64,000 bases of DNA, from the NCBI GenBank assembly GCA_001724265.1, contig MEDY01000036.1:1-64000 (forward strand), given 5' to 3'. The notes beneath the pieces were generated by a model. That model was not told the origin of the DNA, searched no databases, and was given only the letters and a program-made list of their open reading frames with translations. Source of the stretch: Rhizaria sp. SCN 62-66 (Eukaryota). The stretch's first letter is position 1. Each line of letters begins with the position of its first letter. This document shows, one piece after another, positions 7,093 to 63,998 of the stretch. A program made the translations under genes and the position numbers.

Positions 7093-10000
7093 TTAGTACG
7101 CGGCCTCCGAGTTCTCCAGCTGCTTGGCTACAAAGGCGGTCTGCGCGATGAGCTAGCGCTGCAGCTCGGGTTCAATGCGCCCGCGCCACTTCTGGATCTT
7201 GGCGTGTGTAAGGTAGCACGGCGCGGTGTGCGCCGTGGTCATGAGCGCGTCGCAGTCGATGGCGCGCGCCGGGAGCGCGGAGAGGAAGACGAAGACGTCC
7301 CCGGGCGTGGAGAGCGCGAGCACGTCGGGCGTGGCCAGGTGCAGCAGTGCTAGCGCGGTGCGGAAGAGCACGGCTGTGTTGCCCTCGGCCAGCATGACGT
7401 CCCAGACGCGGAAGGCCGACTCAGGGGGCAGGATGTCAACGTAGAGACACAGGAACCACGGCAGGCAGATGACGGCGATGTCGACGTTGAGCGCGCGGAG
7501 GTGATCCGCCAGCACCGGGAGCCGCTTGCCGACGTAGACCGAGAGCACGCGCATGTCGGTGCGCACGTCAAGCATCGACGGCGAGTAGTAGTCTGCAGGG
7601 ACGACCGTGGACAACAGCTGGTCAAGCATCCAGAAGGCGCGCTCCTCGGAGTAGAAGAGCAGCAGCGCGGCGGTGATGATGTTCATGCTCTGGCAGTAGC
7701 CGATGCGCGGGTGCTTAAACGAGAACACGGCCAGCACGTTGGTCAGCATCGCCATCCCGTGGTCGGAGCGGAACAGCGGTCGGTGCTGCATCGTGCGCTT
7801 GACGTCCTTCTCGATTTCCTTCTGCGACTTGGTGGGGTGAAACGTGAGCTGCCAGAGACACGTCTCGTAGTAGTCGCTGTGCTCCTGCCGCAGCACGGCC
7901 GCGTCGGCCAGCGCCTCCCACGCCAGCGGGCGCGCCGCGACGGGGATGCCGCGCTGCACGAGCCGCAGCCCCTTCGTGGAGCGCAGGCGGGCCGCGAAAG
8001 ACGCCAGCGCGCGCTCGTCGGGCTCGGAGTCGGAGTTTGCGGCCGCGGCGGGCACGCCGTGGAGCATCTGCCCGCGCGCACCCCAGTCCGCGGGCAACCC
8101 GCAGCCGGCGGCGAGGTCCGCCCACGCGGGCTGCACGGCCAGGCGCGACATGGCGTAGTCTTCGCGCCAGGTCGAGTACTGGATCGGCGATACGTCGCTG
8201 CCGAGCGAGGTCCGCGGCAGCGAGACGCTGCCGCGGCCGCCCAGCTCGGGCGGCATCGACAGCGAGCCCCCACTGGCGATGAGCGCCGTGCTGATGTTGG
8301 CCTCGCTCGCGCTGGCGTTGCCAGAGCTGGAGTGGGAGGGCGAGAGAGTGGTAGGACTCACGGCGGCCGGGGCTGACGACGGCGGCGGCGGCGGGCGCGA
8401 CGGCATCACCGAGTACGCCCGCTTCTGCTGCTGCTGCTGCTGACTGGTCTGAGGCGGCGGCGGCGGCGGTGTGACCGTGGACATGAGGCGCTGCGGGGGC
8501 GCAGACGGTGGCGGCGGCCGCTGCGGCGGGGGCTGCCGCGGCAACGCATTGTCACTTGCACCGGCGCTGGCACTGGCGTTGGCGTTGGCGGCGGCAGCGG
8601 CGGCGGCGATGGCTGCGGCCGACGGCGGCGGCGGGGGCAGGACCGACCCGCGGTGCTGCATTTGCTGCTGACTGGGGGAGGCCGCTACAGAGGGGCCAGT
8701 GCTCGCGGTGCCGTTGGCGCCAGTGAGGACAGACGGGGGGCGGTGCGCGGGCGGCGGGGGCCGGGGGGACACCGCGCCGCTGGCGCTGGCGTTGGTGGGG
8801 CTTAAGACGCTGCCGCGGGAGGCGAGGTGTGGCGGCGGCGGCGGCGGCGGCACGCTCGAGCCCGCACTGGCGCCCGCGCCGGCGCTGGGCGGGGGGAAGA
8901 AGGACGCGGCACCGCTGGCGCTGCTCGCGGCCGCGTTGGTGCTTGCGGCGGCGTTGTTCGAGGGCGAGACGTAGGAGGCCGGGGACAGGGCCATGTGGGG
9001 CGGTGGCGCCAGCGAGGCGTGCGCCGTGGGCAGCGCGGTCGGCGAGCCTGCGATGTTCGCAATGAAAATAAATGCAGAGAAATATGCTCAGTGAGATTGA
9101 TCCAAGATATCATTGAATGATACGAATGAAAAACAAATTAGAAAACATGAACAACAAAAACACACACACGGTAATTACAGGATGATGGCGACATTCACGT
9201 CTAAAAAGTAAGATGAAAGAATTATATGTTGTGTCGATATCGTACCTGGAGGGGACCAGTCGCGGCCGCCATAGTAGTCGTCGTCGTCGTCATCCTCGTC
9301 GTCGTCGTCGCTGCCGCCAGCGCCGTTGCCGCCTCTGCCGTCCTCGGCATCGCCGTTGACTGACGACGCGCGGGTGAAGGTATACGAAGCATCATAGGGC
9401 AGAAACGACTCCGGGAGACCGCCGTCGCCGTCGTCGTCGTCGAAGCCGCCGTCCTCGTCCTCGTCCTCCTCCTGCTCCGGCGCAGCGCCGGCGGCGTCGC
9501 CGCTGTCCGTCTGCTGCGACGAGCTCGCGGTGGCAGCGCTGGCGCCGGGCGGGGGCGCGAAGGGGGGCGGCGGGGGACGCGCGCTGGCGCCGCTGCTGCC
9601 GCCAGCCGAGGGAGCGGGGGGCGAGAAGGGCGGCGGGGGCAGGCCGAGCGTGGGGACCGTCACGCTGCCGCGAGGCACCGCGCTTGCGCTCACAGGCGCC
9701 GTCGCCGTCGCCGTCGTGCCCGCGCTTGCGTTGGCGTCGGTGGGGCTGGCGTCCTGGGCGGCGTCGTCAGCAAAGCGCACGACCTTCTTGCCTCTGCGGC
9801 TGCCGGTGCGGCCCGCGAGCGAGCCGAACACGCCCGTGCCTAACCGCGCGTACGGCGCCGCGGCGGGCTGCTGCTGTTGCTGCTGTTCCGACTGAGCATG
9901 TTGTGGCTGGGATTGGGCAGCTGATAAAGGGGGCGGCGCGGGAGCGCTCTTGCCTGCACCCACACTGGTACTGGTACTGGCACTGACGCTGCTCAAGCTC

Positions 10001-26115: not shown

Positions 26116-27208
26116 TTACCGGAAGAAGAGAAGCGAACATAGTTTCTTAAGAATTGCCACGACCACAATCAGCAGTCCCATTAACCTGAGTACAAAAAGA
26201 CACATCGTAAAATAAAACAAAGTAAGTACAGTAGTCATTTATGAGAAACATCCATGGACATTAACATGGCAATTAGAAAACAATATGATTCAATCCAGCA
26301 AGTGCACATTAAAAAATCACGTTTAATGTTGGTATATTTCACTTCACAAGTGAAACTTGGGGACGTGGGGACGTGGGGACGTACTTGAGAATGAACATCG
26401 AGTTGTCGTGGAGCTTAAACTCGAGCTTCTTGGTCTTATCGTTGTACACCTCGGGGTCCTTCTTGACCCACCGTGGGTAGCACTGCACGCACAGGTCAAC
26501 GTCGGCCACCGTGCTCGGGCCCACCACGCCCGCCAGCGCCGCAGTCGCCGCGGCGGGCGGGGCTGTGGCGTTGGCCGCGCCCGGGGCGGAGCCGGCCTTG
26601 GTGTTCTTGTAGTAGTTGTACAGATTCTGTTTGCCACATGCGTCGCACTGGTGCGCGCCTGCGCGCCGCGCAAGCAGCGGCAGCAGCGCCTCCATGCTGG
26701 CCGTGACGAACTCGCCGAACTTGCGGCCGACGCTGCCGCCCTGCTCGGAAACGCGCGTGACGGTCGCGTCCGAGGGCTTGTGTAGCGCCACGGCGGCGAC
26801 GGAGCCCGTGACCAAGAGCGCGGTCGCCTCAGACACGTCCGCGATGGCCTCGCGCGTGTTGGCAATGAACTAGTCCGCCGCGGCGAGCGTCGACGGCATC
26901 ACGCTCTTGGCCAGCGCGGGCGCGGGCTCGCGGGAGACACGGGGGTGGTCGTCGTCGTCAGCGATCACAGGCAGGTCAAGCGGCGGGAGGCTCGTTGTGT
27001 TGTCTTCGGGGGCGTCGGCGACCATGTCGTAGTCGGCGTCGTCCTTGTCGAGGTGGGTCGAGCTTGACAGCGCGGGCATGGACGGGGGCGCCAGCGTTGC
27101 AGTCTCAGAAGCAGCATCAGCAGCAGAGTTGGAGTCGGCGGTGCTGTGCGTGCTGTCAGTGGGGGAGACGCACTCAGGATCGGCGTACAAAGCGGCGGAA
27201 TCACTCAT
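26116..27208 (-). CDS. Hypothetical protein with a degenerate ZZ-type zinc-finger-like motif; exon 27208-26385 (contains an in-frame TAG) and a tentative last exon 26185-26116
   Basis: ORFs 26870..27208 and 26339..26836 share one frame, separated only by a TAG. HQCDACG...YY...DVDLCVQCY motif; GTACGT donor at 26384. The last exon (hydrophobic tail, TAA) is speculative. Confidence 0.65.
26870..26872 (-). other. In-frame TAG, candidate sense (Gln) codon
   Basis: GCG GCG GAC TAG TTC ATT GCC AAC ACG CGC GAG: coding-like codon bias on both sides and no intron signals. Confidence 0.7.
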
Positions 27209-31674: not shown

Positions 31675-32759
31675 ATGTGGAAGAGTCTGTTCGGCAACAA
31701 GAGTGCGACGCCCAAGGCCGGCGGCTCCGGCGGCCCCTTCTCCAGCCCCAAAGGTGGCAAGCCCGCGGCGCCGACCTTCACGCTCACGACGCTGAAGCTT
31801 AAGTACGCGCGCCTGGAGCAGTACGCTGTGATTACGGCGGCGAACCGCGACGAAGTGGTGGAGCTGATCCGCCTCATCGCCGAGCTCGTCATCTGGGGCG
31901 ACCAAAACGACCCCAGCTTTTTCGACTACTTCGCAGAGTGCCGCGCCATCGCGCATATCACGAAGCTCGTGTCGAGCGACAATTGCCCACATCAGGTTCA
32001 GGGCCAGATCATCCAGACTATCTCGATGCTAATCCAGAACACCAACTCCCCCATCGCCGTCTTCTACCTGCTCTCGAACAACTACATCAACGACCTCATC
32101 ACACACCCCTTCAAGTTCGACCAGCACGAAGACTTGCTCGCGGCCTACATCTCCTTCCTCAAGGCGCTCTCGCTGCGCTTCAACTCGCAGACGATCCACT
32201 TCTTCTTCAACGCCAAGTCGGGCGACTTCCCGCTCTACGTCGAAGCCCTGCGCTTGTGCCGGCACCGGGACCCGATGGTGAAGAACTTCGTGCGCACCAT
32301 CTCGCTCGTCGTGTTCCAGCTCGCGCGCTCGGAGCCCGCGCTGCTGGCGTTTGTGCACGCACAGACGGCGCTGCCGTACTTCGCCAACGTTGCCTGGGGT
32401 CTGCGCGAGCAGACTCTGCAGCTGGACTGGGCGCTCAGCGCGGCCGCAGATCCCTTCCTGCAGCTGCAGCACACTGTTTCAGACGGTAACGCCGCTGCGG
32501 CGGGCGCGGGCGCGTCTGCGAGCGCGGGCGTGAGCGGGAGTCGTGCGGTGACGGTGACGCCCGCGGCGACGGCGGCGGGGGCCGTCAACTCGAGCGGCAA
32601 CGTCAACATGCTCGTCCTGAAGCGGCGCGAGGCGGCCACGCGGCTCGGCCAGGCCGCGGCTACGGCGGTCGACTCGATCGAGGCCAGCACACACCTCGCC
32701 TGCACCAGCGTCGCCGTTGCCGGCAGCGCGGGGGCGCAGCCGCTCGCCACCGCGGCCAC

Positions 32760-32792
<33 letters not shown>

Positions 32793-38700: not shown

Positions 38701-41700
38701 TGGCCCTACCACCCCACGCTGACGCAGTACAAGCTGCCCGCGCCGCGCCCCGCAGCCGGCGCTAACGTGATTGCCGCGCAGCAGCAGCAACAGCAACAGC
38801 AGCAGCAGATGCCGACGTCGGTGCTGGGCATCGCCACGGGCACCTTCGGGCTTACGCCAACTCTCATCACCACCCCGGCGACGCAGCCGCTGACGGCCGC
38901 CGCCGCCGCCGCCTCTGCGGCCACTGCGGCGGCGAGCGCGAGCCAGGGCGCGCTGGGCGCGGTGCTGAGCCCGGCTTCGCACCTGCTGCTGGCGCCGCCC
39001 GTCGGCCCCGGCGCGCACGCGCAGACGCACACCGCGCCGCTCCCCTTGGACGTCGCTGCTGACACCGGCGACGAGACTGCTGGCGCTGTCAATGCGGAGA
39101 ACGAAGACGAAGACGTTTTGGGGTCGCCCTGGACAGTGACACCGACGGTCGGCACTGCGATGCTCAGGGGTCTGCTGCAGGCGACCACGGCCGATATCAG
39201 CAACACACTTCACGGTCTTGCAATGTTTAATAGCAGCACTAGCAGTGCGACGGCAGCAGGCGAAATGCTGGTCAGCTTGTACTCGATCAACGGGCTCCCG
39301 ACCAGCTGCTCAGCGGCCGCTTCTGATTCTACCGCGAGTGCGAGTGCGACTGTGGGGTTCACGATTAGCGGTCTGTCTAGTGTAGCCGTGGCGCCCGACG
39401 ACGTTGAGGCTTCGCTCGCGAAGGCGATGGGCAGCGCATCGCAGATCATGCAGCTGGTGGGCCACGTCTACGAGCAGGCTATGCCCGCGTCCGCGCTCCT
39501 CGCCGCTGTTAGCGACCGCATCAACAACACTAAGGTCAACGCTGGCGCTGGTAAGACCAGTGCGAAGAGTAGTAGCGCTGAGAACCAGGACAGCAGCAAG
39601 GACAACGAACAGCAAAACGAGGACGAAGACGAGGACATCGAGGAAGACGAGGAGGACTTCAGCGCTGCCTCTGCGACGCTGTCGTACACGGTCACGCTCA
39701 CGCTGCCGCTGCGCCCGCCGCCGGTGATTGTGGCCACGGCGCCCGCGCTCGCGCTTGCTTCGCTCGCCCTCTTCGTCAACCGGCTCACCGCGCGCTACAG
39801 CGCCAGCGCTGGCTCCGGCTCTAGCGGCGAGAGCACGAGCGCGCTGCAGATGCTGCTGCCGCACACGTTCGCCGTCGCTCTATCGTCCGCGCTCGCGGTC
39901 GTCTCCGCGGGCGCCAGCCTCGCCGCCGCGCCCGCCGACGCGCGCACAGTTGCCTTCCCACCGCTCGCGGGCGGCGCGACGGCTGCGGGCGGCGCGGGCC
40001 AGTGCCAGTGGCGCCAGGCGCTGCGCTCCGTCAAGACCCTCGTGACGCAGTGCGCGGGCGCCAAGGCGGCCGCGGGCGTCGGGCTTTGGCTCGCTGCCGT
40101 CGCCGCCATGACCGGCGTCACTGACCTCGTCACCACCGCCACCGCCGCCCCGGCCAGCGCCCGCTGCGCTTCCGCCAGCTCTAGCTCTCGCTCCGGCTCC
40201 GTCAGCGGCGCTGCGACTGCCATGGCCACTGCTGCGACTGCTACCACTGCTGGTGGTGCTGCTGCCGCTGCGGTGCCCAGCGCGGCGTCGCTGGCGGCCA
40301 CGGGCGAGTGGTGCGGCGCGCTGGCCACCACACTCACGCTGCTCTGGGGCACGCACCGCGCGCTCCGCCGTGACGGGCCTCTTACACAGCCGTCTATGTG
40401 CCTCGGCGCCGGCGCCGAGCGGCCGCTGCCCGTGATGCCCGTGCTCGACGCGCCGCCGCCGCCGCCCGCGGGCAGCGTTATCTCGCTCTGGCCCGTCCCG
40501 CGCCAGGCGCTCGCAGTCACGGTCACCGCCGCGAACAGTCACAGTAGTGGCGACGTGCTGACTGTGAGTGCGACCGAGAGCGCCGCTGTCGCCGCCGCCA
40601 TCGCCGCGCTGCCTGTGCCGACGTACAAGGCCAGCGTGTACGCGCGCTGCGGCATTGCCCCGCCGCCCCACACGCCCGCGGTCGCTAGCAACAGCGCGAA
40701 CGGTGCCAGCACGGTTGCGGCTGCGAACGCGGAGGCGGCCGCCGCTGCCGCGGGCTCGCCGTGGCCCGCGAATGTGTACGCCGCTGCCGCAGCGACGTCC
40801 GTCGGCCTTGCGTCTGCTGGCGACTTAGATTCAGACATTGGCCTGCCTTTGATTGCAGTGGCAGATGTGAACGACTCGTACATGTTCGTGCTGCAGCCTG
40901 TGACGGACGACGACGTGTTCGTCTACGAGAGCACTGTGAGCATTGATGAGAACAGCAGCAACATGAGCGTGAATGACGACAAACCGATCGTTGTCAAGAG
41001 TGGCAAGAAGAAGGCGAATACTACCAACAAGCCTGACAGCTCCGCGAATTCCAGTGCTAGTGCAGAGGTGACTGTTACCATTCGTTGGCCGCGCCGCTAC
41101 ATCGTTGTCGCCACAACCCCTCTGTTCGAAACCACGCCTCAGTCCGTCGCCCGCATCGCGCTCCCCACTCTCCCCTTCGGCGCGCAGCAGCTCAAGCCGC
41201 CGACTGCGACTGCGGCCGCGATTGCCGGCGCACCCGTGACGGCCTCGGGGTCCGCGGTGCCCGCGTACGTGGCGGCGCGGCCCAGCTTCGTGCGCTCGCG
41301 CGGCGCGGCGCTGACGCTGCTGACGCGCGCGCCCGTGGCGCCGCACCACTGGGCGCTGCCGCTCGCGCCGGGCGCGGCCGCGGTGGCGCTCACGGTCACT
41401 GCGGAGCCGGCGCCGCGCGAGCGGGAGTACTTTCCTGTCGACGCCGGCGCGCTGCCCACGGTCGCCAAGAGCAGTGGCAGCGCGAAAGAGGACGACGCTG
41501 CCGACGCTGACGGGTTTAGAGTGTGGGCTGCGGCCGGGATGCTCAAGGAGACTGTGCGCATTAGCGTTGAGGACGACGAGGACGATAACAACAACAATAA
41601 CTCCGATAACGACGACAGCGGCGCTACTACTGAGTCAAGTGCTGCTGCTGTTTCTGTCGATGGCGATGGTGGCACATCGTCGCCTGTTGATAAAGATAAC

Positions 41701-43005
41701 CTCGACGTCATGAGTGTCAATAGCGATGCTGCGATTGACCTTGAGTCGTTCACTGCGCCTTCCGCGGCCGTTTCCCCCAACAGCGAGAATGTCAACTCTC
41801 AGACCAACACCCTCAGTAATGACAAGGCTGCGAACGCTGTCAAGACGGTTCCTTCAGAGCTTGTCACCGACGCCATCGTCGACTACAAACACTCTGATGC
41901 GCACGCTGACTGCACGAGCAACGTTGCCCCCGCCGACTCCGCGTCGGTCGACTCCGCCGCCGCTCTGGTGTGCTCGCCGCTTACGACGGCCGCGCTGGCG
42001 CAGTCGATCATGTGCCGGCCCATCGCTACCGTTACACCGCTGCCCGAGGCTGCGAGCGTCGCCGCGTCCTACGCCGCCGCCGCCGTGGCCGCCGCCGAGA
42101 CCGCGGCTACGGACATGACGGCCCTGCTCGCCGCTACTGCCACGGCGACCGCCGCGCGCGTTACCGGCATCAAGAGCGATAGCTCCAGCGCGGGTGTGAG
42201 CGCGAGTGAGATTGCTGCTGCGGCTGCGGCTGCGGCTGCAAAGGCCATCTACCCCGCGTTCTACGGCGGCGTGCCCCGCTCTCTCCCGCGCCCTGTCCCC
42301 GCCAGCGGGAATGACCACAACGGCGGCGACAGCGACCGCGACGGCGACGGCGCGGGCTTGCTGCCGCCGTCGCTGCCCGCGGCCGCGTGGCGCCCCGACC
42401 TCGCGGGCACGCACGCGCGCTGGGAGGCGGCGCTCCCGCATCCTTACACTGCGTACGACAGCGTTCTCAGCACAAATACTCCCGCTGCTGTGAGCAGCGA
42501 TGCGGGCGCTTCTGTTTCTGCTGTTGCTGTTGTTGCGATGCCCCCAAGCATGGCTGACCTGAGCACTCGTCTCAGCGCCCTCACATCGGGCACTTACCCG
42601 CCCACGCGCGCCGCAGGTGTCGCCGCCTCGGTGGCGACGGCGACGGCGGCCACGGCGCTGCCCCGGTGGAAGCTGCGGCTGTGCTTCGGCACTGTGGGCG
42701 AGGCGGCCGCGGTCGCCGAAGCCGTGGCGGCGGCGCGGGTGCGCGTGCGCACGCAGTCGATGAACGCGCTGCGCAACGTTATGAACACTCTCACGAACAC
42801 GAACATGAACATGAACGCGAGCGCGTTGATTAACAAGGATAGTGATGCGAGCGCTGAGACCGCGACTGGGGTTGCGACCACGACTGCAACGGAGCCAGCA
42901 AAGGCAAGTGCTGCTCTGGAAGCTGAGAGTGCGAGTGAGGCTGTGGTGGAAAACGACAAAGTTGTTCCGGTGATCAAGGCGAACAAGAAGAAGAACCGCA
43001 AGTAA
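31675..43005 (+). CDS. CLEC16A: CLEC16A/TT9/GOP-1 family (FPL domain) protein, greatly expanded, ~3776 aa, apparently intronless
   Basis: IAELVIWGDQNDPSFFDYF, QIIQTISMLIQN, FYLLSNNYINDLI, YISFLKALSLRFN..TIHFFFN and DFPLYVEAL...DPMV...VRTISL. Later family-like blocks (DVLFYVNDVF...LADQLL; HLLHQTLALV.YAPL) are separated by inserts. ATG at 31675, TAA stop. Confidence 0.92.
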
Positions 43006-45776: not shown

Positions 45777-47730
45777 ATGGGCAAGGGTGGCGCCCAACTG
45801 GGCAAGCCCGTCAAGGGCAAGAGCAAGGAGCGTAAGAAGGACCGCAAGGCCAAGACGGGCGGCGACGCGGGGCTCGCGGACGACATCAAGCTGCTCGAAG
45901 AGTACGAGCGCCTCAACAAGCTCGCCGACGCGCAGCGCCTGCGCCTCAAGCGGCTACAACAGCAGGAGATGTACAACACGAAGATCAACCAGAACATTCT
46001 GCTCAACGTGCACCGTAAGGCTATGCGCGCGGAGAAGCTCGACTCGCTGCGCAAGGAGATCGAGATCCTCGCGCAGAACTTCGAGCGCGAGGTTGACCGC
46101 AAGGACGCGATCCTGCAGATGCTCACTAAGGACATTGCACAGGCCGAGGAACAGTACGACACTGCGCGCCGCACGCACCTTATCAAGGTCCAGCAGTTCA
46201 TCACGCTCCACGAGCAAAAGCTCCAGGTATGTTCAGATGTGAAGCAACAGAACAAGAGCATTTCAGCTGTACAGACGAGCGAAATGCATCAATGTTGCTG
46301 TCTTTTGTGTTATAATTTGTATTTCTTCACTTCACAAAATTGTTTATTAAAGAATAATGCGCTCGTCTTGCATAATTCTCAATCTATCATGGTTGCCCGT
46401 ATTCTCTCTTTTTCTTATCTCTCTCACTTGCTATGCTCTGCCATGTTTTGCTTTGTTTTGTTGTGCTTTCCAGGCCGTGAACGCGGACTTTGAGCGGTAC
46501 GTCAAGGCGCTCAAGACCGAGTTCCACGCCGAGCTGGAGGACCTCCGCACGCAGCACAACCGCGAGACACGCGAGCTGGCCTCGGTCATCGCGCAGGTCG
46601 AGGCGCTAGACAACGCGCAGACGTCTGCGACCAAGAGCGCGCAGGAGGCCGAGCGCGAGCGCGTGCGTAACGCGAACCTGGAGTCGATTAACGAGCTGCG
46701 CATCTCGCTGGAGAACCGCATCGAGGACCTGGAGAAGCAGTTCGACGACGCCCACAATATCTACACGGACCACACGTATCAGAAGCACCGGCTGTTCCGC
46801 GAGCTGCAGCGCTCGGATCGGCGGCTGACGTTGCGCGTGCAGGCGCGCCGGCGCCGGTTGGACCGCCTGCAGGACGAGCTGCAGGCGTGGCGGCGCAAGC
46901 TGGCTTTCTCCGAGGCCGAAAACGAGCGCACGCAGACGGACCTCGCCGCGCAGCGCGACCTGGTCAAGTCGCAGTGCGCGGCGCTCAAGGCGCGCACGCA
47001 GGCGATGCGCGCGGGCGAGGCGAAGCGGCTCACGGAGCTGTCGCTCATGTCGCGCGACGCCGCGAAGCTGAACAAGGAGAAGCTCGAGTTCGCTGAGAGT
47101 CTGCTGCAGCTGGCCGAGCTGGCGCGCAAGCTCGAGACGGAGAAGGAGAAGGTCATGCCCGTGGACCCGCACGCCACGGCCGGCGCGGCGGCGCTGCTGC
47201 AGGGCCGCACGACGGCTGAGGGTGTGCTCGAGGCGACGCTGCAGCAGCAGCAGCTGCAGGGCACCACGCTGCCCGCGCACATGACCGGCGTGTACCCAGG
47301 CAGCAACGCTGCCGCCAGCAACGCGGCCGCCGCGGCCGCGGGCGGCGACGAGGCCGGCGGCGCGGCGCGACTGAGTCTGGGCTACGGCGTGGGCGCGGGC
47401 GCGGACGCCGAGGGCGTGCGGCGGCTTATCGACGGCCAGGACTGGAGCTCGCTGGACGTCTTCTACGCCAAGTACAACAAGGTGATGCTGGACAAGCTCG
47501 CGATCGCGCAGGAGAAGGCGCGCCTGAAGCAGGAGAATGGCGACCTGCGCGCGATCCTGAAGCAGTACCTGGACGGCATCGCCGTCAACAGCGACACGGT
47601 CGGCGAGACGAACCCGCTGCTGATCGTCAACGGGCGCGTGAACCTCATGGGTGCCACGCAAAAGAGCACCAAGCGGCCCAACGTCGTCATTGAGAGCGGG
47701 CAGGTCATGCATCAGTACCAGCACACGTAA
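45777..47730 (+). CDS. DRC2: Dynein regulatory complex subunit 2 (CCDC65), 568 aa; exons 45777-46226 and 46474-47730
   Basis: LRKEIEILAQNFEREVDRKDAILQML.KDI..AEEQY and YNKVMLDKLAI..EK..L..EN..LR.ILKQYLDGIAV...NPLLIVN. Phase-0 GTATGT...CAG intron; TAA stop. Confidence 0.9.
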
Positions 47731-51000: not shown

Positions 51001-51870
51001 GGCCGTGTCAGTGCGGACGAGGATGTCGACGAGTGCGCAGCGCGAAAGCACAAGCGCCGGAGACAGGTCAAGGCTAAAGCGGAACCGCTGCTTGAGCATG
51101 TCGGCGGACGGCGGAGGCAGCGACGACGCAGTTGTCACGGTCGCGGTCGTCGTCGCAGTCGCCGCAGTCGTCGCATCAGAATTAGAGCTTGAGCTGGAGC
51201 TTGAACCAGAGTTGTTATTGGCAAGCAGGTCAGCTGCAGAAACAGCAGGGGCATCCACAGCCGTGCTGTCACTACTTCTCGCAGTCACAGCGTCAGCAGG
51301 AGCAGCACCAGCAGCAGGAGCAGCAGCAGCAGCAGCAGTGACTGCTGGGACAGAGGGGGCCCAGACCGATGCGCCGGCGAAGGGGAACGCAGCGGCGTTG
51401 TCGGGGTCTGAGAGCAGCGCCCTAAGCGAAGTCGTGTACTCTGAGTCCAGCGGCGATTGCGACCCCGCGCCGCGGCCCCCGAGCCCACAGCTGCCACCGC
51501 TGGAGTCACCGGCGTCAGATGGGTCCGAAGCACTGAGGAAGGCGGAGTTGGCGAACGGGAAGACAGTGGCGCCCGCGGCAAATGCGGGGTCGCTGTGAGT
51601 CGCGCGCCACTTGGCCACGGCCGCGGAGAATGCCGCCGCGCCCGAGCCACCCGTGCTCGCAGTGTTTGTCGCAGCGTCCGCGGTGGCCGCGAGGAGGCCG
51701 TGCAGCTCGTGCAGCGGCAGGGAGGCCTGGGCGCCACCGTAGTTGGTCAAGGTGTCCATGATGACGACTTTGCGGCCGATGCGCGCAAGTGACGCCGCAA
51801 GCATCAGCTGCGGAAGGCTTGTGCCGATGAAGATGGCGTCGTAGTCCGTCGAGTCGAGCGTGTACGACAT
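48026..51870 (-). CDS. CHM: Rab escort protein (REP/CHM, GDI superfamily), ~1149 aa; exons 51870-50682, 50480-50117, 49922-48026
   Basis: YDAIFIGTSLPQLMLAASLARIGRKVV..D...YGG, RFSLDLSP..VLSR..LVDILV...SYLEFK, PCSKGDIF and LGRFG...LYPSYGISELAQAFARLTSVFG. Both introns are phase-compatible; TGA stop. Confidence 0.88.
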
Positions 51871-52274: not shown

Positions 52275-53243
52275 ATGTCGATCAACGAACAGCCCCTTCT
52301 GTTCCTCCTCAACGCCAAGGGCAAGGAGACCGTGAATGACATCTTCGTCACTGCCTTCCGCTTCCGCCGTGACACCATTCCCGAGCGTGTACGTTCTATT
52401 AACTTCTGCACTCATTCCTGCCATATTACACTCATATCTCCGCTCTCTGCATCCCGCGCACTCGACACTCCCGCAAATCTCACCCACTCACTTCACTTCA
52501 TTTATCTTGCGCTGTCTCTCGCCCTACCTAACTCATCCCTCTTACGCACACGCACAGAAGCTTGCCGAGTGGTCCACTGAGCTGGAGGTCTCGGTCGCGG
52601 ACGCCGCCGTGCTGGCCGGCAGCGTGCAGGCGCTGGTTCGCTCCTGTCTCTACTCCAGCTCGCTGCCATCGCAGGTCCTCTCGGAGGGCTTCCACCCGCA
52701 GCTCGCCGCGCTCATGAACAAGGTCCTCAAGGCGCACGCCGAGGAGTGGCGCATGGCCGTCACCATGAACAAGGTATCGCCACCGCAGTTGCTCGAGTTC
52801 AACTACCGCATCGACACCAAGGCCAGCTCGGACGCGCTCGCCAAGATGTCGTCCTCGTCGCTGCTGCTCGCGCTTAAGATCCAGGTACGCCGCCATATGG
52901 TCTCTGCACAGCTCTGCCGCAGGATATCTATTTGCCATAGCTTAACACTGTCATATAGGTATATAATTGCATCTAGTCCTACGATGTTCTTGCTTCGTGC
53001 TGTTCCAGTCTACTTCAAACTTACATCTGAATCATCTTTTTTGTCATCGATTGCTTGCTCCCGCCTTTCTGTGGCTCTGGGTCGTCGCCGTCGCTGGTGC
53101 TGTGCACACTATAGGACCAGCCGACGCAGGTGGGAGTGATGCCGGGCGTTAAGGACGTGCAGCTGGAGCTCAGCACGCAGGAGCTGGCCACCATGCTCGA
53201 CGGACTGGGCAAGATCAAGGACCAGCTCGAGTCCATCAAGTAA
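52275..53243 (+). CDS. COMMD9: COMM domain-containing protein 9, 189 aa; exons 52275-52388, 52558-52884, 53115-53243
   Basis: FHPQLAALM.KVL, PQLLEFNYRIDTKASSDALAKM and the C-terminus LELSTQELATMLDGLGKIKDQLESIK. Two phase-0 GTACG introns; TAA stop. Confidence 0.9.
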
Positions 53244-53708: not shown

Positions 53709-56700
53709 TCAATCGACGGGGAAAAAGCTCTCGTCAAGCGGCGCCCCTGCCCTGATTGACTCCACCAACCAGTTGAAATTGACGACATGAATCCCGTGTT
53801 TCCGCGCGAATGCCACTTTATCGCCCTCGCCCGTCATAGCGATGACGTGTGTGACGTCCGTGGTCAGTGTGTCGCTGTACGCGGCTCGGCGCAGGCTGTT
53901 AGCCATCACCACGAGCTCGTAGATGGCGGCCTTGACGTCCTGCGTGTGCTGAGTCGCGCAGACCACAATGCCCTTGGGCCGCGTCACCACGGGTGCAAAC
54001 GGCACGAAGACGTTGTCGTGCAGCGCGTACACGTCGATGACTGCGGCGGCGGACTCACGGTCGCGGCGCGCTTGCTCCTGCTGTTGATGCTGCAGTGACA
54101 GCGCCCCTGGCTCAGTCTCAGTCGCAGCCACACCCGCTGTCTCCGCGGCAGTGTTGGCTGCTGATACTGCCGTTCCAGTTTGCGCTCGTACTGCAGAGGC
54201 AAGCACGGCGACGGGAACCTTAACGACCGCGGCGGCAGCGTGGGCCGTCGCGCTCGCGTTGTGCGGCTCCAGCATGCAGAACCGCTGGGCCACGTGCAGC
54301 GGCGAAAACGACGCGAGCACGCACCGCTCCCGCGTCTCCGGCTGCAGGTCAGGCAGGGTGATGTTGTTGACTTGCGGTGAAGAAGAGCCCGATCCCGCGA
54401 GTGCCCATATATTCTCCGCGGACGCAGCACCAGTGTTCGCACTCGCGGTTGTGGTGGCTGCAGCTGCTGCTGCAGCAGCAGCGGCCGCGCGGGCGGCTGC
54501 GCGGGGCGCAAGGACGCCGCCGGCGGCGGCAACGGCAGCTGCGGTCGGTAAGGCAACTGCAGCAGGCGCGGCCATCATCGTCGCCTTCACGGTAGTGCTG
54601 CCGTTGTCAGTATTGGCGCTGCTGTTGTCAGCGTAAGGGGCAGCGCGTGCGCGCAAACGCGGCGAATGTGCCCTTTGTTGTTGTTGCTGTTGTTGTTGTG
54701 ACTGCGTCTGTGACTGCTGGGACAGCGCGTTGTTGCTGTTGGCCGCCGGCGTCGCCGACGGCGCCAGAGTGTCGCCGCCCTGCGACTGCGACAGCGGGGT
54801 CGGCAGCGACGTGATCAGGTGCGCCTGCATCAGTCCGCGCATGTGCGCGCGCAGAGGGCCCGGCGTGGGCAGCGGAGGCGCCAGGAACACGCTGTGGCTG
54901 CCTTGGCTGATGCTGTAGCGCCACCGCGTCGGGTCAGTCGGCGACGGCTGCAGCGAGCGCAGGTAGCGAGTCAGAGAGACAGGCGGCTGCGAGCGCTCGC
55001 CTGCACGGCCCGACTTGCCCCCGCTCTTGCCCTTCGCAGATGTAGCCGCAGCTGAGCTTGAACTCGAGTCCGCGCTATGTTGCTGCTGCTGTTCATTTTG
55101 GCTTTGTAGTTGTTGTTGCTTGAGAAGAGCGTTGTACCTCGCGACCACAAACGCGTTCGGCGCGACCGTGCCGATCGAGGTGGGCTGCGATAAGTAAAGC
55201 CGCCGGGGGTCGATGAGCTCGCCCGCCGCGAGACAGGCGGTGACCCAGCGAGGGCGCACCAAGCACAGCGGCCACGTGGGGAACGAACGGAGGTCGATCG
55301 GCGTGTAACTTGCCATCGTTGCAGCGGCAGCAATGTCACTGCTGTCACTCATATTCTTGGAACTGTTGTTGCTGCTGCTGCTCCGAGTGCCGTTGCTGTT
55401 GTCAGGATGAAACGTAACGAGTGGGTCGTACCACAGTGAGTCGTCATTCGCATCTTCAAGAACGACGAACTGACCGTGAGCAGGAGAGGCGGGGTGACCA
55501 CGGCCAAAGCCAGACTGTGCACCTCCAACAGCACCCATGACATGGGTGATCTTCGCGTTCGTGCCGTCGCTGTCGCTGCCACTGCTCAAAGCCGCCGGAG
55601 CAGGGATACGGCCAATGTTGTTGCGATTCGCAGCAACGTCACTGCCCCACATCGTTTGCACCGACGGTCCAGTTTTGGTTCCGCCGGTTCTCTTCGCCCC
55701 CGAAGCAACACTAATGCCGGCAGCACTGATCGCGTCCGCAGCTGTAGCAACAGCAGCGTTCCGGGCCGCAATGTTCGCATCAGCAGCAACCGCCGCGGCA
55801 GCAGCCGCCGCCGCAGCAGCGCTACTGCCTCGCTTACTGCTACTAGAGGCCTTGCTCGAGCTTGAGTTAGCGCTGGTGCTCGCGTTGGCCAGCGGGGGCA
55901 CCGTGTTGGCGCCGGCGCCAGCCCACGCTGCGCGCGCGCCCCAGCCGCCGCCCTCCGGCGGCGCGATGGCGGCGAAGGGCAGTGCGTCGCCGTCGAGCGC
56001 GTGCGTGATTACAAAGTGCACGCCGCTCCGCATCACCGACGGATGCGTGTACACGCTATACGAGGCGGGCACTGTAGTCAACCCAGTGTCTTTTGCCGTA
56101 GCCTTTGCACTTGCACTTGAGCTAGGGCTCGAGCTAGAGCTGGAGTTTGAGCCTGATTTCTCGTCATCATTGTTAGACGACTTGTCACGCTTTGAGCTTG
56201 AACTATCACTCTGACGGCTAGACTTTGATTTGTTGCTCGCCTTTGATGCAGTTGCAGCAGCCGCAGCAGCTTTCTTGGTGGCTGTCGCAGCCATCCTGTG
56301 GTCAATGCCGACCGCGACCGCGGTTTTGACCTGGCCCTGTTGCAGCTGCGGCACCGCGTCGCTGCCGAGTAGAGCAGTGCCGCCGTGCTCCGTGATGAGC
56401 TGCAGCATAGCGACGCTCTCAGCAAAGTCGAGGCAGATGACAAACACGACGCCGTGGAACAGAGTCGATTTGAGAGCAGGCTGGCCGCCAGTGCTGTTTC
56501 GCGCGTTCGTGCTGTTGCGGTTCGCTCCAGTGCGGACAGGGATTGCGGTCATCAGGCCCGTCCCAGCGTCCTCCTGCTGCCGCAACGGCCCTTTGCCGGC
56601 ATCAACATCGGTGGTGGTTAGGGCGGCCTTGGCCTTAAGAAGGAGGGAGCCGTAGGTCGTGGCAGGCAGCGTCGGCGCGGCCGCCGCCACGGACGATACG

Positions 56701-59700
56701 ATGAGCACTGTTGGCGGTTCACTGGTGCTGCGAGAGTCCTTATTCTGGTGATTAAGCTGCTGAGAGTTCTGAGTGAACGACTGTGCGTTGACATTGCGGG
56801 CAAACTTGTCCGTGTTGGGGCTTGTGCTGGTGCCAGCGGAGGACGAGGACGAGATGGTGATTGCCGATTGAGAGCGAGGCAGTCCGAAGCTGTTCGCGTT
56901 GTCGTTGATGTTGTTGTTTTTTGTCGCACCGTTGTTGCCAAAGATGGCGTCGTATTCATCTTCGATTCCGTCATTCATAGCCATGTTGGAGCGAACAGTG
57001 TTTGTCTTCGACTCGTCGATTGAGTTTTTGCTGCCACCACCATCACCTTGCTATTGCTGTATGGTCGCGGTTTGCGTCTCTCCATTGGCCAACGGAGCTT
57101 GCCTTGTTCCATCAAAGCCATGCGTATGCTCCAGAGCGTGACTGTGACCGTGAGCGGACGAGATGTGACTGCTTGAATGACTCTGCGCAGTGCTAAAACT
57201 GTTAGATTCAAGACTGGCGTGACTATGCAAGCTCGACCCACCCTCGTAACCACCATAGATCACACTACCAGCCGCGCTCCCAGCACTGTTGCCTGTAGGC
57301 ACACCGTTACGACTGGCTTGGCTATTGCCAGCGTTGTTGTGAGGACTCACGTTGGCGGAGACAGTGACGATGCTGCTGCTGGGGGAGAAGGCACCGCTGA
57401 GGTCGCCTTGCGTCGGAGTCACCATCGGCGCTGGCAGCGATACGAGGCCTGTCGGCGCAAAGTCGGACACGAGAGGCTTTAAGGCGGGCTCCCATCCAGT
57501 GCCAACACTCACAGTGCTGCTCCGAATCCCAGAGTTACTGGGATTCCGGCCAAAAGACTGACTCTGCCCCTGCCCCTGACATTGATCGGCAGCAATAGAG
57601 CTTGCACTTGTGTTCATGCGAATTGCGGGATTTGACTTGTTGAAGTCGGCAGTTGCAGATTGATTGTCGTCCTTCAATGATTCGTAATCGTCTGTATCTT
57701 GCATACTCGCAACCTTGCTCTCCACACCTGCGTGAGAAGTGGACACGGGCCGTTCATGTTCTTGTTTGACTTCCTGTTGCAACTGTTGTTGTTGCTGCGC
57801 GTGACTTGCCAGCCGCTGGCGCAGCGGCAGAGTGTCGAGATCAACATCATCGAAGTTAATGCTACCGCTGCCATTTACATTGACGTCGCCAGCACTTTGA
57901 ACGGCAGCAGCAGTAGCCACTGCAGGAGTCTTACTGGAGGTCAACACAGCCTCGCTATCACGTGCACCCCGAGTGATAGCGGCGGCGCCCGCCATCGCCG
58001 TCACCGCCTGCGTCCGCAGCTTCTCATTGGCAAGGAACGGGTCCGTGGGGGGCCTCCCGCCCAGCGCCAGCGCCGCCCACAGCCAGCCCACGGTCACCAC
58101 GGGCACGCGCGCACACAGCGCGTGCGCTACGGCGGCCGCGGTCGTCGTACGGACCACGACCGAGGGCGCGGGCGGCGCCGCGGCGGTCGCGACGGTGGTG
58201 TGGGTGTGTTTAGCAAGCAAGCCAAAATACGGGATTGGACGGTCACCAAGTGACGCCGCCGCACTGCTCGCATTCGCGTTATTGCTGCTGTTGATCGCGT
58301 TGCGCGTGTTGATGTTCGCGTTTGCAGCAGTGCTCGCGTGGACGCTGGCGGCGCCGCCGCTGTCACCCGCCGCCGTGGCCGCAGCGACGAGCCCAGCGAT
58401 GGACGGGTCGTCCGCCAGCAGCAGCCGCTCCAGCCACGCCAGCAGCGCGGCGTAGTCGGGCACGATAAAAACCGACGAGTGCGGCGGCAGTGTGAGCTGC
58501 GTCTGGTGAAACACGCCCGCCTGGCGCAGCAGAGTGACGATCTGCGTCGTGACAAGCGGGGAGAAGCCGGGACCGAGCACCGGCAGCAGAGGTCCGTCCG
58601 CCGCAGCGGCAGCAGCGGAGGCCGGCAGTAAAGCGGTGAACAGAGTCAGACCGCGGCGGGTGAGGGGGCGCGCCTCGGTCAGAAGCTCCGTGGTGAGCGT
58701 GGCGGGGAGAGACAGCTTTGGCAGTGGGAGCGCCGATGCTGCGGAGCTCCCTATAACCGCGTCGCCAGAGTGAGAAGACGAGCTCGTGTAGCCGCTGTTA
58801 TTCGTGCTAATATTATTCGTAAAAAATAAGATGCAGAGCTCATGCGAGATGATCGTTTGCGCCAAGAGTGACAGCAACGAAGTTGTGCAGTGGGCTGTCA
58901 CGAGCGCAGACTCAGTATCCTTATTGCTATTCAGGCTTGCAGACACGCAATTAGTGTCGCCGCGAGTTCCGGTAGTGCGAGCATGCGTTCGCAGACTTGC
59001 GACACTTGAGGCCAACACAGGGGCGAGAAATGCGGTGGCGTCGCGCGAGACGGACAGCGGCCGCAGTGAGGCAGTCAGGGGTGCAGCGGCGGCGGCGGCG
59101 AGTGCGCTTGTGGCGAGGATGCGCTTCAGCTCGGCCGGCATAGATGGCGGCGGGAAAAAGCGACTCGTGACAGTGAGCAGTGGGGCGTTCGCAGCAGCGC
59201 TAGCAGTAGAGCTATAGCTGGAGTTGGTTGAACCGTAGCTGTTGGCGTTGGAGCCCAAACTTGCAGCGTTGCCATATGATCTAGGGCTCGAGCTCCTGCT
59301 GCGTGAGAAAACGCTGTAGACGGTTGCACATGTATACGTGTACGATGTCAGCACCTTGACAGCAGACGCGCGCGCGCTCTCAACAAGAGAGTAAACACGG
59401 TTTAGCCTCTCACTAGCGCTAAGTTCACTTTCACACTTCAACTTGTTCCGTGTGTTCTTCGAGCTCGAGGTAGACGTATTAAGGGCAGTGATTGTGGTGG
59501 TTACAGCAGCCCAGAGACTGTGTGTGTACGCGCGCACAACATCCCCTGCATCAATCACACTGGCGCTGGCACTTGCAGCCGACAAAGCAGTGCGGCGCGA
59601 TGCAAGATCCCCCGCCAGAGCGAGCAAACTGCGCACAGCCTCGGTTTCCTCGCCGGCCAGCTGCGCGCCGCCGATCGCGGTCACGCTCGCGACGCTTGCG

Positions 59701-62700
59701 TTGTTGCTGTTAGAGACCATGGACGCGGCTTGGTTCAGTACAGACCGGAACACAATCGGCCACCAGTGCACGGGGCACACTGCGACAGCACCGTGGTTGG
59801 ATGAATTGTTGCCCAACGCACTTGCGGCGGCAAAGCTCGCAGTCACCCCCGCTCCCACCGTGGCCGCTGCTGCAGACGCCGTGGATGCTGCTGCAAGCAA
59901 ACAGATGCCGCAGGAGTGTGCGCCGACACCGAAGGAACGCAGCACTGGGACCGCGAGCGCGGCGGCGACGAGGCGCGCGGGGGCCAGCACAGAGCGGAAG
60001 CTCCGGAGATGCGTGGACCCAACGCCACCGCCATACACACCGCCATCACTACTGGCAGCAACTGCAACGGACATAACAGCAGCGGAGACATTGTCCGAGC
60101 TATCGTTGTTGCTGCTACTGTTCGCATCGTAAGTGAGTGCATGGGTAAGAGCACGTGCATCGCGCTTCGCGTTATAGCGCATGCCAGCAGCCACAACAGA
60201 GTCGGATGTGACCGTGGGCGCGGCCATCGTAAAGCCAAGACTTGCCGCAGTAACTGTGTCAGCGGCAAATCCAGTGCCACCACGGATCTTTGCGACCAAC
60301 GGTTGTTTTGCGCTGTTCGAACTACTCATGAGAGTAGCCTGTGTGTCGTTGTCTGACATTGCATACAAAGCATTCTTATTGATAACATGCACCGTCGTCA
60401 CATTCGTGGTAGTGGTGCAGATGGGGGCTGCCACAAGCAGCGCGTCTTGCGCCCACGTCCACTCAGGCCATAGCGATGACGATGACGGCGCGACAGCAGC
60501 AACGCCTCTGGGGCGTGCGCATAAGCTCGAGCCGCTATTCGCTGCGTTTTGCGGCTGTGCAGAGTCCTGCTGCACAATGAAGTAGCCGCCGCGGGCGTCA
60601 ATATTCGCCCAATCATCGCCACTATGACCAGGAGTAATCGCACCAGCTTTCGCGCCACTCTCAACCACAGACTTGCTTGGGCTGCTGCTGTCAGCGCCCA
60701 GATCAAGCGCGGACAGCGCCGCGGCCGCCGACGCATCGACAGTGGCGATGGCCCTGGCGACGGAGGAGAGCACGGCGACGTCAGCCCGCACGCCCCAGCG
60801 GCCTGGATCGCTGTCGTAGCCGCGCTCGGCGTCCCACCGGCTGCCGGGGTGCGCCGTGGCCAGCGAGCCCGCGGTGCGGCCGGCGCCCTCGCGCGCGGCT
60901 GTGGCGAACGATAGCAGGGCCGACGCGTTGGGGGCAGAGCTGGGGGCCGGGAGCAGGGAACGCGCGAGGGCGGCAGGACGGTAGTGCTCAGTGTCGATAA
61001 CAAGGGGAGCGCGGGAGCCGAATGCGGCGGGGCGCGAGCGTTTCTTGGCATGGCCACTCTTTTGCCCGGTAGCATCGAAAGAACTAGCATTTGCAGGGCT
61101 GTCGTTCGCGGTAGTATTAGATAAACGTGAATTTGTCTTATCATCATCAGCAGCAACCGTACTAAGAGCACGATCATCGTCATCACTCGCGTCATTATCA
61201 TCATCGTCATCGAAGTACAAGCTCTTGTTGTTATTCTGAATGAACTCACCGTCCCGTGCGGCCATATCATCGCCATCTCCGTCGTCATCGTCGTCGGTGA
61301 AATGGCTGCTATTATCACCACTGGCAGTGTGGCCCAGTTCACTGTCGCCGTCGTTGTCGCTGTCGCCGTAGAACGCGCGCGCCAGTCCCGCGTCGTGCAT
61401 GTCACGGCCGAGATTGTCGCGCTTCCAGCCCTCGTCGTCCTCCTCAACCTCGTCGTTCTCACTCTCAATCGCCATTTCATCACCGGCAATTGCGGCGGCG
61501 TCTGCGTTGTTGGAATTAGAGTTAGCGGCAGCGGTAACTGCGGCGGCACGCACAGTGGCCTTGCGCTGCCGCTTCTGCGCTGCAACCAGGACGGCGTCGG
61601 CGCGCCGCTTCTGCTGCTGCCGTGCAAAGGCCCGCAGCGAGCCGTTGCGTGCGCTGCGCATCACGCGCCAGTGGTTCCGAAAAAAGTTCATTTCGAACGC
61701 CTTGAACGGGATCGCAGGAACGGCGACTGGGGGACCGAGAGAGGGCGCGTATACAGTGGCGTTCGGAGCGTTGTTCGAGCTATTGGCGTTTGCATCCGAG
61801 TTAAGGATCGTCGTTGCGGCAGTGAATGCGCGGTAGTACTCGCGCTGCGAGGTTGCAGCGATTGAAAGCAGGGCTGACTCGGCAGATGTTGTGGGGATAC
61901 TTAAAGCTTCTGAGAGGGCGTTGAGATTGGCGTTCGTGGTCGCAGATAGAGGAAACATGAAGCCGGCAACATTCGTCCATTCACAGTCCTCATCCTGCAG
62001 CTCGGACTCGAGCGCGCTCTCATTGCCATAGCCAACATCACAACCCTCAGTGCGATTGTAAATGCCATTCCGACTGCTGGCATCCTGCGCTTGCACACCT
62101 GCACTCGCACCACCCGCGTCAACAGCAGAAGCGATGGTACCATTGTTGATGTTAGCATTGTTGCCGTTGGTGGTGTTACCTGTGATAGGCGCATCGAACC
62201 TGCGAATCAGCGACGGGTTTGCGCTGGCATACTCGACCGCGCTCTCGGGCTGCTCAGGCGCAAACACGCCAAATGGCACAAACTCAGTGGTATTTCCTGT
62301 CTTCCCGCTTGCGTTTGCATTTGCACCGACCGCGCTTGTCGGGGGCGCTGGGAAGCGAGGTAAAGCGGCAATGGCAGCGCGCGCAGCAGCGGCGGACGCA
62401 GCGGAGGCTGCCTCGGCGCGCGCTGCCTTACTTAGTTTCCGGCCAGTTCCAGTTCCACTCGCAGTCGCAGTCAAGGCGGTGTCCGTTGCAGTGGCATTTA
62501 AGGGATCGGCCACGGCAGGATTTTCACTATTGTTGTTGTTGCTTTTGTTGTTGGTCGTGTTGAGATCTTGTTTGCTTGATTCGCCCTTGGATCTCTTTGC
62601 AGTGCTTGTGTTGTCGCCTGCACTTGCATTGTTGTTGTCAGCATGAGCGCCGCTATCATCCGTGGTCGCGCTAACCGGCTTGTTAGCGAGCGTAAGCTTC

Positions 62701-63998
62701 TTCTTCCATTTGTTAATAAAGTCGATGTTATTATTGATCTTGACTAAGTATGCGTTCATGTAGGGAGGCCAGGACACCCTGCCATGCGTCAGTGTAAGCG
62801 CCCACAGCCACTCGGCGCGCACAACATACACGGAGGAGCTCGTATTAGCTCCAGCAGCAGCTGCGGGGGCACGATCCGCGGTCGAGACTGCAGCTGGTGA
62901 GGCTGGAGAGTTGATGTTCGCGTTGTTGTTAAAAGCTGCAGCCGCTTCAACGGCAGGTGCGGCGGCCGCAGTGACGTATAAAGGACCAGGCAACATCAAC
63001 GGGGCAGCGTCACTGCTGCTGTCATTCATGTTCCCGCTGTCTCCGTCAGCATCTGACATCGCTATAGCGCTCGCGCTCGCGCTCGCGCCGAGACTATTGG
63101 TAGCCGAGGCTGTTGGAGCAAAATTAGCGGAAGGCACGCCATGGTACGTTGAGTCGACGATCAGGTACTTACATTCTGGGGTAAGGACCTCGCTTACAGT
63201 GCCGCCAAGCTCGCGGATACGCTTGGACACAGCAGCGCGCATTCGGCGTTCGTGCGCTTCAGAGAACGTGTTCCTGTTTATGTCGCTATTGCTCAGAGGA
63301 GGAGGCGCAAGACCCGCGATGCAGACGGTTTGTCCTTGCAAGTAAACCGAGAACAAACCGACTTTCACACTGTCACACACACTCGCGAGCGTCGTGCAAT
63401 CACTGCTAGCGCTGGTGCGTAAACTCCGGCGCACTATAGGGACTCGAAGCCCGCAGTCGTGGCCGTACGCATCGTAGATCGCGCTCACAGTTGCAGAGCT
63501 GCTGACAACCGCGCTGGAGCCCACGATAGCCTTTGTGCTGGAATTCACGCCTGCGCTCGCGCCGTGAGCCATCGCCACAGCCGCCACGGCCAGGGACCCA
63601 TAACGCAGCGCAAAGGCGAGGAAGTCATGCGACACGACGGTCATTCCGTCGTTGTTAACGGCGAACTGGTACTTTTTCGACCCGGGCGCGACCGCGACGA
63701 CGTGCGTGCACACGTTGGGCATCAGCGCGTCCGTGACCGCGGCGCCGCACAGCGTGGCCAGGAGCTCGAGCTGGCCGGACCGCAGCAGGAGGGCGCCGCC
63801 GGTGACTGTGAACACGGCGGTGCCAAGGCAGCGCGCGCGCGCGAGGAGGAAGGCGTTTAGACACGCAAGGAAGAGAGTCGGCGAGCGCAAGACGGGGGCA
63901 GCGGCGGGGATTGTGAACGCGGGCGCAGTAGCAGAACTGCCACTCGCACTGAACATGGGCGATGCTTGGACAGTGCTGTTGGAGTGACTAGCGGCGGA
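53709..63998 (-). CDS. Multi-BRCT protein, TopBP1/Dpb11/Rad4-like, >3400 aa, 5'-truncated by the window, with one in-frame TAG at 57051-57053
   Basis: About five BRCT-like repeats, e.g. CTHVVA...SKKYQFA...VVSHDFL; GQTVCIAGL...ELGG...VVRAEWL; VPVVTVGWLWAA; LFHGVVF...EHGG...LVRPRWVTACL; VTHVIA...GDKVAFARKHGIHVVNFNWLVESI. ORFs 57051..63956 and 53709..56984 share a frame, which stays open to the window end. TGA stop. Confidence 0.8.
57051..57053 (-). other. In-frame TAG inside a glutamine run, candidate Gln codon
   Basis: ATA CAG CAA TAG CAA GGT GAT GGT on the minus strand. Confidence 0.75.

Follow-up and report, generated by a model that had tools for sequence, protein, structure and literature searches.

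In-frame TAG codons in a TopBP1-like gene and other nuclear genes of a wastewater protist, and the possible use of UAG as a glutamine codon

The minus strand of the window (the whole stretch of DNA analyzed here, 64,000 nt in length) contains, at 53709-63998, a single frame whose sole internal stop is the TAG at 57051-57053, with the peptide context Q-Q-TAG-Q-G-D-G, and this frame most likely represents one TopBP1-like gene of more than 3400 codons. Two further in-frame TAG codons, one in a ZZ-finger gene and the other near the end of a TBC gene (Table 1), were found by reading the genes and by scanning the stop triplets of the window for coding-like flanks; the same window-wide scan detected no in-frame TAA or TGA with coding-like flanks inside genes. 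We propose that UAG is a sense codon in the nuclear genes of this organism, most likely read as Gln, and that UAA and UGA remain stops, a proposal to which we assign an even chance of being correct. It is highly probable that the TopBP1-like gene yields a single protein read through its TAG, be it by full reassignment of the codon or by leaky decoding.

Table 1. In-frame TAG codons of the window and the associated features
Feature	Position	Strand	Description
TopBP1-like gene, upstream part of the frame	57054..63998	-	2315 codons, open at the window edge
TopBP1-like gene, in-frame TAG	57051..57053	-	codon context CAG CAA TAG CAA GGT
TopBP1-like gene, TAG-to-ATG stretch	56985..57050	-	22 codons; coding-like score 0.13, higher than 43% of equal windows in the gene
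TopBP1-like gene, downstream part of the frame	53709..57050	-	1113 codons; first ATG 56982-56984; ends in TGA 53709-53711
First BRCT repeat	63621..63773	-	weak match (E 0.05) to human TopBP1 around residues 200-255, the best among solved structures
Second BRCT stretch	63147..63233	-	partial Pfam match (E 4e-4)
C-terminal BRCT repeat	53712..53978	-	best match Rad4 (E 1e-12), then TopBP1 and microcephalin
ZZ-finger gene, second in-frame TAG	26870..26872	-	codon 113 of the gene 26117-27208, which has one intron and ends in TAA
TBC (RabGAP) gene, third in-frame TAG	7153..7155	-	closes the TBC domain region near the gene's end; 19 coding-like codons lie between it and TAA 7093-7095

The TopBP1-like gene

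A preliminary description of this locus, made from the sequence alone, had placed a TAG within a Gln run of a TopBP1-like gene, and the intact frame that continues past this codon to the TGA bears it out. The upstream open reading frame, given there as 2301 amino acids long, is in frame as claimed, but the true frame has 2315 codons and is open at the edge, the smaller number being counted from the first Met inside the window; the start of the gene probably lies outside the window. The distance of 66 nt from the TAG to the next ATG, which was correctly measured in that description, compares with 295 to 1739 nt in all 15 intergenic gaps, including the two that separate genes on the same strand (317 and 1348 nt). 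The GC content of this short stretch is 0.50, so that it is not AT-rich, as had been stated; its use to tell coding from intergenic DNA or introns does not hold, however, because intergenic GC ranges from 0.33 to 0.51, the three GC-richest of the 13 introns have 0.47-0.50, and the minimum GC around the TAG is 0.47. Given this overlap, GC alone cannot classify the stretch, whereas its length and the absence of a donor do. In the 400 nt upstream of the TAG, no splice donor scores higher than 1.3, compared with leave-one-out scores of 1.7-14.0 (median 9.0) for the donors of the 13 introns mapped by eye, and the fraction of T in the 20 nt ending at the TAG is 0.10, compared with at least 0.25 in 11 of 13 acceptors; the reported lack of a nearby donor and of a pyrimidine tract is thus confirmed. 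An intron removing the TAG had been named as an observation that would overturn the reading, and the search for one turned up no usable donor upstream. With no donor, no T-rich tract and a gap of 66 nt, an intron and a pair of separate genes both fit poorly.

Four (X3-X6) of 12 listed sequencing runs were mapped onto the TopBP1 stretch, the other two TAG sites lying outside it. Run X3, from another study and another year than the likely source, yielded a 2195-nt contig over 56525-58719 that is identical to the window, with no differing letters and no gaps, and accordingly reads TAG; CAG in raw reads had been named as a further refutation. In the poly(A) run X6, depth is 0 across 57015-57348, leaving the junction uncovered; X5 likewise has no cover there, and X4 has a depth of 4.17 in the junction bin, with no spanning piece among those listed (32 of 1075 pieces, along with 40 of 91 variant rows). 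The lack of RNA cover at the junction, together with the overlap between the minimum GC around the TAG and that of the three GC-richest introns, is what would favor an assembly error, a cryptic intron or RNA editing as the source of the apparent TAG; against the identical X3 contig, the missing donor, the T-poor stretch before the TAG and the ZZ homologs, which exclude an intron at their own site, we regard such an artifact or removal as extremely improbable.

BRCT repeats lie on both sides of the TAG, as originally described, with Pfam PTCB-BRCT matches upstream (E 2.7e-7) and downstream (E 6.2e-10). The Pfam-matched stretches are only three, two upstream and the terminal one, and the repeats nearest the TAG are visible by eye or weakly matched (E 0.12); three inner BRCT pieces gave no significant match against the PDB. 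The C-terminal repeat, described as looking intact, is a good BRCT repeat with a strong match to Rad4. The gene resembles the TopBP1/Rad4/Dpb11 scaffolds in having several BRCT repeats in one frame, the first (weakly) and the last of which match TopBP1/Rad4 best among solved structures, but differs from them in its length of more than 3400 residues, its long Ala/Ser/Asn inserts within and between the repeats, and an N-terminus that extends beyond the window. On these sequence comparisons, TopBP1-like is a reasonable label for it.

The ZZ-finger and TBC genes

The best evidence that TAG is read at all comes from the ZZ-finger gene and not from the TopBP1-like gene, where the codon lies in a low-complexity linker without an aligned ortholog and the poly(A) run gives no cover; of the three sites, the TopBP1 one is nevertheless the best for Gln as the residue, the point for which the preliminary description had put it forward. 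A profile search with the ZZ protein produced 21 matches. The protein of a relative, P0013, is 47% identical to it over 258 columns, unbroken across the TAG, and this closest ortholog has the Lys codon AAG at the TAG site and a gene that ends in TAA. In a 15-row alignment, 13 full-length foreign homologs all have a residue in the TAG column (K, E, R, A, N, V, K, R, K, T, R, R and E), Gln being absent from them, and since the homologs are continuous here, there is no room for an intron. The structure model places the site inside a 37-residue helix (20-56) with pLDDT in the high 80s, after a conserved motif. P0014, a spliced product of the ZZ gene, has its start called at a GTG shortly downstream of the TAG, an indication that the TAG may be retained in the mRNA. 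A metagenome scan with the ZZ gene found at least one locus, L001, an intronless contig of a relative, among the 594 stretches listed; none of 261 candidate stretches in viral contigs agreed with the ZZ alignment.

In the eukaryotic family to which this protein belongs (26117-27208, minus strand; P0013 and P0019-P0037), a conserved M-P-x-T-M motif precedes two long helices; the members also have a ZZ-type zinc finger and, at the C-terminus, a hydrophobic segment. The finger is recognized by Pfam (E 0.003 and 0.0002), and its fold matches include the ZZ domains of p62 and PRT1, none under E 0.5. No informative names are on record for those family members that were looked up.

In the TBC gene, the 19 codons that follow the TAG have a coding-like score of 0.35, compared with negative scores after 13 of 15 true stops. 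Of the eight matches of the TBC protein, the nearest foreign one, at 32-38% identity, is too distant to align the extension, and because no homolog aligns across it, this TAG may be a true stop.

Gene ends, TAG usage and the standard code

Counting the TBC gene as read through, the 15 mapped gene ends comprise 9 TAA, 6 TGA and no TAG; if the TBC TAG is the true end, TAG accounts for 1 of 15. The open reading frame at 27732-28886, the end of which is unclear, was excluded from this tally; its frame ends in TAA. The contrast between internal and terminal TAG is associated with a Fisher p of 0.0015, which rises to 0.022 when the TBC gene is taken to end at its TAG, both values being post hoc. In a standard-code fornicate, UAG ends as few as 4.12% of genes (PMC9161772), and at this share the probability of no TAG among 14 ends would be about 0.55, so that the tally is too small to exclude a UAG stop share of about 4%. 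The window contains 3 TAG as against 372 CAG and 123 CAA; TAG thus makes up 0.6% of the codons proposed for Gln and occurs in 3 of the 16 genes. About 89 TAG would be expected at the TTG/CTG ratio of the window, approximately 30-fold more than observed. This deficit would have one of three causes: a recent change, poor decoding that confines UAG to tolerant sites, or a stop that leaks. The rarity of TAG suggests a young change or decoding that is still inefficient; the code change may, accordingly, be young or incomplete. No tRNA genes or Rfam families were found within the 64-kb window.

Under the standard code, the TAG codons would be nonsense alleles fixed under weak selection, or the genes would be split and restart at the next ATG, with the TBC TAG as a real stop. 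TAG is the most reachable nonsense codon, being the product of 63% of the single-step nonsense changes in the open reading frames of the window, and three random nonsense alleles would all be TAG in about 1 case in 4; the argument that three internal stops, all TAG, cannot be nonsense alleles was therefore dropped (P 0.25). Proteins swollen by low-complexity sequence would be in keeping with weak selection, and an ATG follows 22 codons past the TopBP1 TAG. An N-terminal fragment of TopBP1 supports replication in Xenopus extracts. This bears on the argument, advanced in the preliminary description, that TopBP1/Dpb11 proteins are needed as single chains for replication initiation: according to 10.1101/2023.03.31.535063, the TopBP1 pair BRCT4/5 is dispensable for replication in Xenopus extracts and the equivalent pair of Dpb11 is essential, so that the argument is weaker than it was made to appear. 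Set against the standard code, the 14 long exon stretches examined (about 14,900 codons) are free of frameshifts and of internal TAA or TGA; the TopBP1 frame stays open for 1113 codons past its TAG and retains a good BRCT repeat at its end; and the ZZ gene, which is spliced, is undamaged to either side of its TAG, with the next ATG 57 codons on, past most of the conserved helices. The TopBP1 allele is shared with the sample of another study and year. Both the otherwise intact frames around the TAG codons and the presence of the allele in separate studies speak against plain decay, and we consider the standard code an unlikely explanation.

The decoded residue

Among the 53 QQxQ contexts in the open reading frames of the window, x is Gln in 42, Leu in 4, Glu in 1 and Lys in none; relative to background, Gln is enriched 20-fold, compared with 0.33 for Lys, 0.76 for Glu and 0.97 for Leu. 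In the ZZ column, Lys and Arg score best, followed by Glu and Gln, and Leu scores -1.85. Gln is the only residue acceptable at both sites, and it has arisen repeatedly in the UAG-only codes that have been published. A conserved Gln column is found at none of the three TAG codons; on the two sites scored, the Q-run context favors Gln and the ZZ column lacks it. Moreover, the Q-run may partly mirror an origin of the TAG from CAG and not the decoded residue, for which reason Gln is graded as likely only. Of the earlier claim of one protein with TAG read as Gln, the single read-through protein thus stands as most likely, whereas the residue is likely only, given the Lys of the ZZ ortholog.

The alternative that UAG is fully sense but specifies another residue, Lys or Glu or, with lower likelihood, Leu (the residue in the rhizarian exLh), draws on the preference of the ZZ column for Lys and Arg over Glu and Gln, on the AAG of the closest ortholog, and on the published reading of UAG as Leu in a rhizarian and in ciliates. 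It appears quite improbable to us in view of the QQxQ contexts, where Lys, Glu and Leu are at or below background, and of the poor fit of Leu to the ZZ column; placement of the exLh type, at Leu positions, was seen at neither of the two sites scored.

Leaky termination and known variant codes

A further possibility is that UAG is a leaky stop at which near-cognate tRNAs supply the full-length protein, either in an ambiguous state or by local readthrough of the type known from tobacco mosaic virus (TMV). The nine bases CAA-UAG-CAA at the TopBP1 TAG are identical to those of the TMV site, as given in PMC13517186; C follows two of the three TAG codons, and the 30-fold deficit of TAG relative to free synonymous use points in the same direction. 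The type I motif UAG CAR YYA of the same source is, however, incomplete here, the second codon after the TopBP1 TAG being GGU in place of YYA, and the other two contexts, UAG CUC AUC and UAG UUC AUU, differ from it and have no common motif. Moreover, no stable 3' structure is predicted at the three TAG codons (z -0.22, -1.24 and +1.37), termination in the ZZ gene would cost the protein its finger and membrane anchor, and no mapped gene is clearly terminated by TAG. We therefore rate a leaky stop as rather unlikely.

Nuclear codes in which UAG has changed and UAA is kept are rare, the cases named in PMC11687900 being a rhizarian, Iotanema, Scotinosphaera and a few ciliates. The code of Iotanema spirale (UAG=Gln, UAA and UGA as stops; PMC5304391) is similar to the one proposed here in that UAG is the sole in-frame stop triplet and Gln is the likely residue, and its gene ends are UAA or UGA, as are those clearly mapped here; a tRNA-Gln(CUA) has been predicted in Iotanema (PMC5304391). 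In the present case, UAG occurs inside homologous coding sequence at the ZZ site, the one of the three sites at which this could be assessed, and UAA and UGA end genes and were not found inside them. The scale differs: 204 UAG in 126 genes are reported for Iotanema, with 22 of 28 hyperconserved sites at Gln (PMC5304391), whereas the 16 genes of the window contain 3 TAG, none of them at a conserved Gln column. Because the sites give no clear placement at conserved Gln and usage is far below that of the described cases, we liken the window to the Iotanema code but stop short of counting it as an established example. In the ciliates Hartmannula sinica and Trochilia petrani, and in Protocruzia tuzeti as cited in the same article, UAG alone has changed to Gln (PMC11687900), which is the change proposed here. 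For the first two, UAG is reported to account for 18.5% and 31.8% of Gln codons and to occur in 78-84% of genes, with UAA-dominated stops (PMC11687900), whereas in the window the share is 0.6%, TGA closes 6 of the 15 mapped genes, exons are GC-rich and introns measure 117-285 nt. The rhizarian exLh (Sainouroidea) shares with the window a change of UAG only in a non-ciliate protist, but there UAG specifies Leu, with 384 UAG in 71 genes at Leu columns (PMC5304391). Listings of the open-access literature showed no altered code in any wastewater protist and, among cercozoans, none besides that of exLh; as this search had no taxon name to go by, the result does not imply absence from print.

A possible route to UAG as a sense codon

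If UAG is a Gln codon in this organism, it would first have been lost as a stop. A tRNA-Gln with a CUA anticodon, one change away from tRNA-Gln(CUG), would then read UAG and would be unable to read UAA, and an eRF1 that recognizes UAG poorly would assist; UAG would return to genes wherever a tolerant site lets CAG or AAG mutate to it in one step. The decoding properties assumed here follow PMC5304391 (section 9), where a tRNA(CUA) is described as decoding UAG and not UAA, as being a single step away from tRNA-Gln(CUG), and as being aided by an eRF1 that binds UAG less well. One tentative possibility is an early stage of code change in a lineage without a described variant code, in which UAG would be gone from gene ends, the new CUA tRNA would insert Gln, and roughly 1 in 170 Gln positions would have been entered, a share some 30-fold below that of the UAG=Gln ciliates described to date. 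Should this prove true, a single living genome would allow tests of the codon-capture and ambiguous-intermediate models, as the organism recurs in wastewater metagenomes from several studies and part of it is present in a poly(A) metatranscriptome. The very low usage of UAG would expose the intermediate step that models of reassignment predict and that finished codes hide, and an additional, independent UAG-only case outside the known groups would raise their count. A practical consequence is that gene callers truncate the proteins of this organism at TAG, the public collection holding the pieces P0003, P0012, P0017 and P0038 and not the whole proteins.

Genomic context and source organism

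The window, a piece of eukaryotic nuclear DNA, carries 16 genes and GT-AG introns, of which 13 were mapped by eye, and encodes proteins swollen by runs of Ala, Ser, Asn and Gln. Several studies of bioreactors, wastewater and sludge have runs that contain its sequence. In a Dim1 tree (a quick search with 119 rows and 142 columns), the window joins environmental sequences with SH-aLRT values of 95 and 91; the wider group with Spongospora has an SH-aLRT of only 80 and includes a row labeled 'Rmarinus', and for these two reasons placement in Rhizaria is a guess. Searches for the TopBP1 junction pattern in viral contigs gave no matches, and those for Dim1 in prokaryote genome contigs gave none of 15; the poly-Gln codon pattern occurred at 79 loci in prokaryote genome contigs, none of which resembles the window (best tetranucleotide correlation 0.67, compared with 0.85-0.91 within the window). 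In run X4, contigs at 51736-51835 and 53147-53204 show many differences from the window in the REP/GDI and COMMD exons, a sign that the sludge sample also contained a related organism, which would be of use in dating the code change.

Several other genes of the window have unusual architectures. The first exon (about 635 codons) of the HAT1-like gene at 1747-6348 (plus strand) is a low-complexity extension with a C2H2-like motif, separated by an intron (3656-3839) from the Hat1_N exon. The CLEC16A/FPL-family gene at 31675-43005 (plus strand) is an intronless frame of about 3780 codons with Ala/Ser/Thr inserts, and the REP/GDI, TBC and TopBP1-like genes are swollen in a similar manner. The protein encoded at 15116-18016 (plus strand) combines an HMG box with a histone fold of the CBF/NF-Y type and has a poly-Gln tail. 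The open reading frame at 27732-28886 (plus strand) is an intronless coiled-coil protein of no clear family, with a lower GC bias than its neighbors and an AT-rich end, and may be foreign or degenerate. A DRC2/CCDC65-type gene with NYD-SP28 domains (45777-47730, plus strand) suggests a present or past motile flagellum. Neighboring genes alternate in strand in 13 of the 15 pairs.
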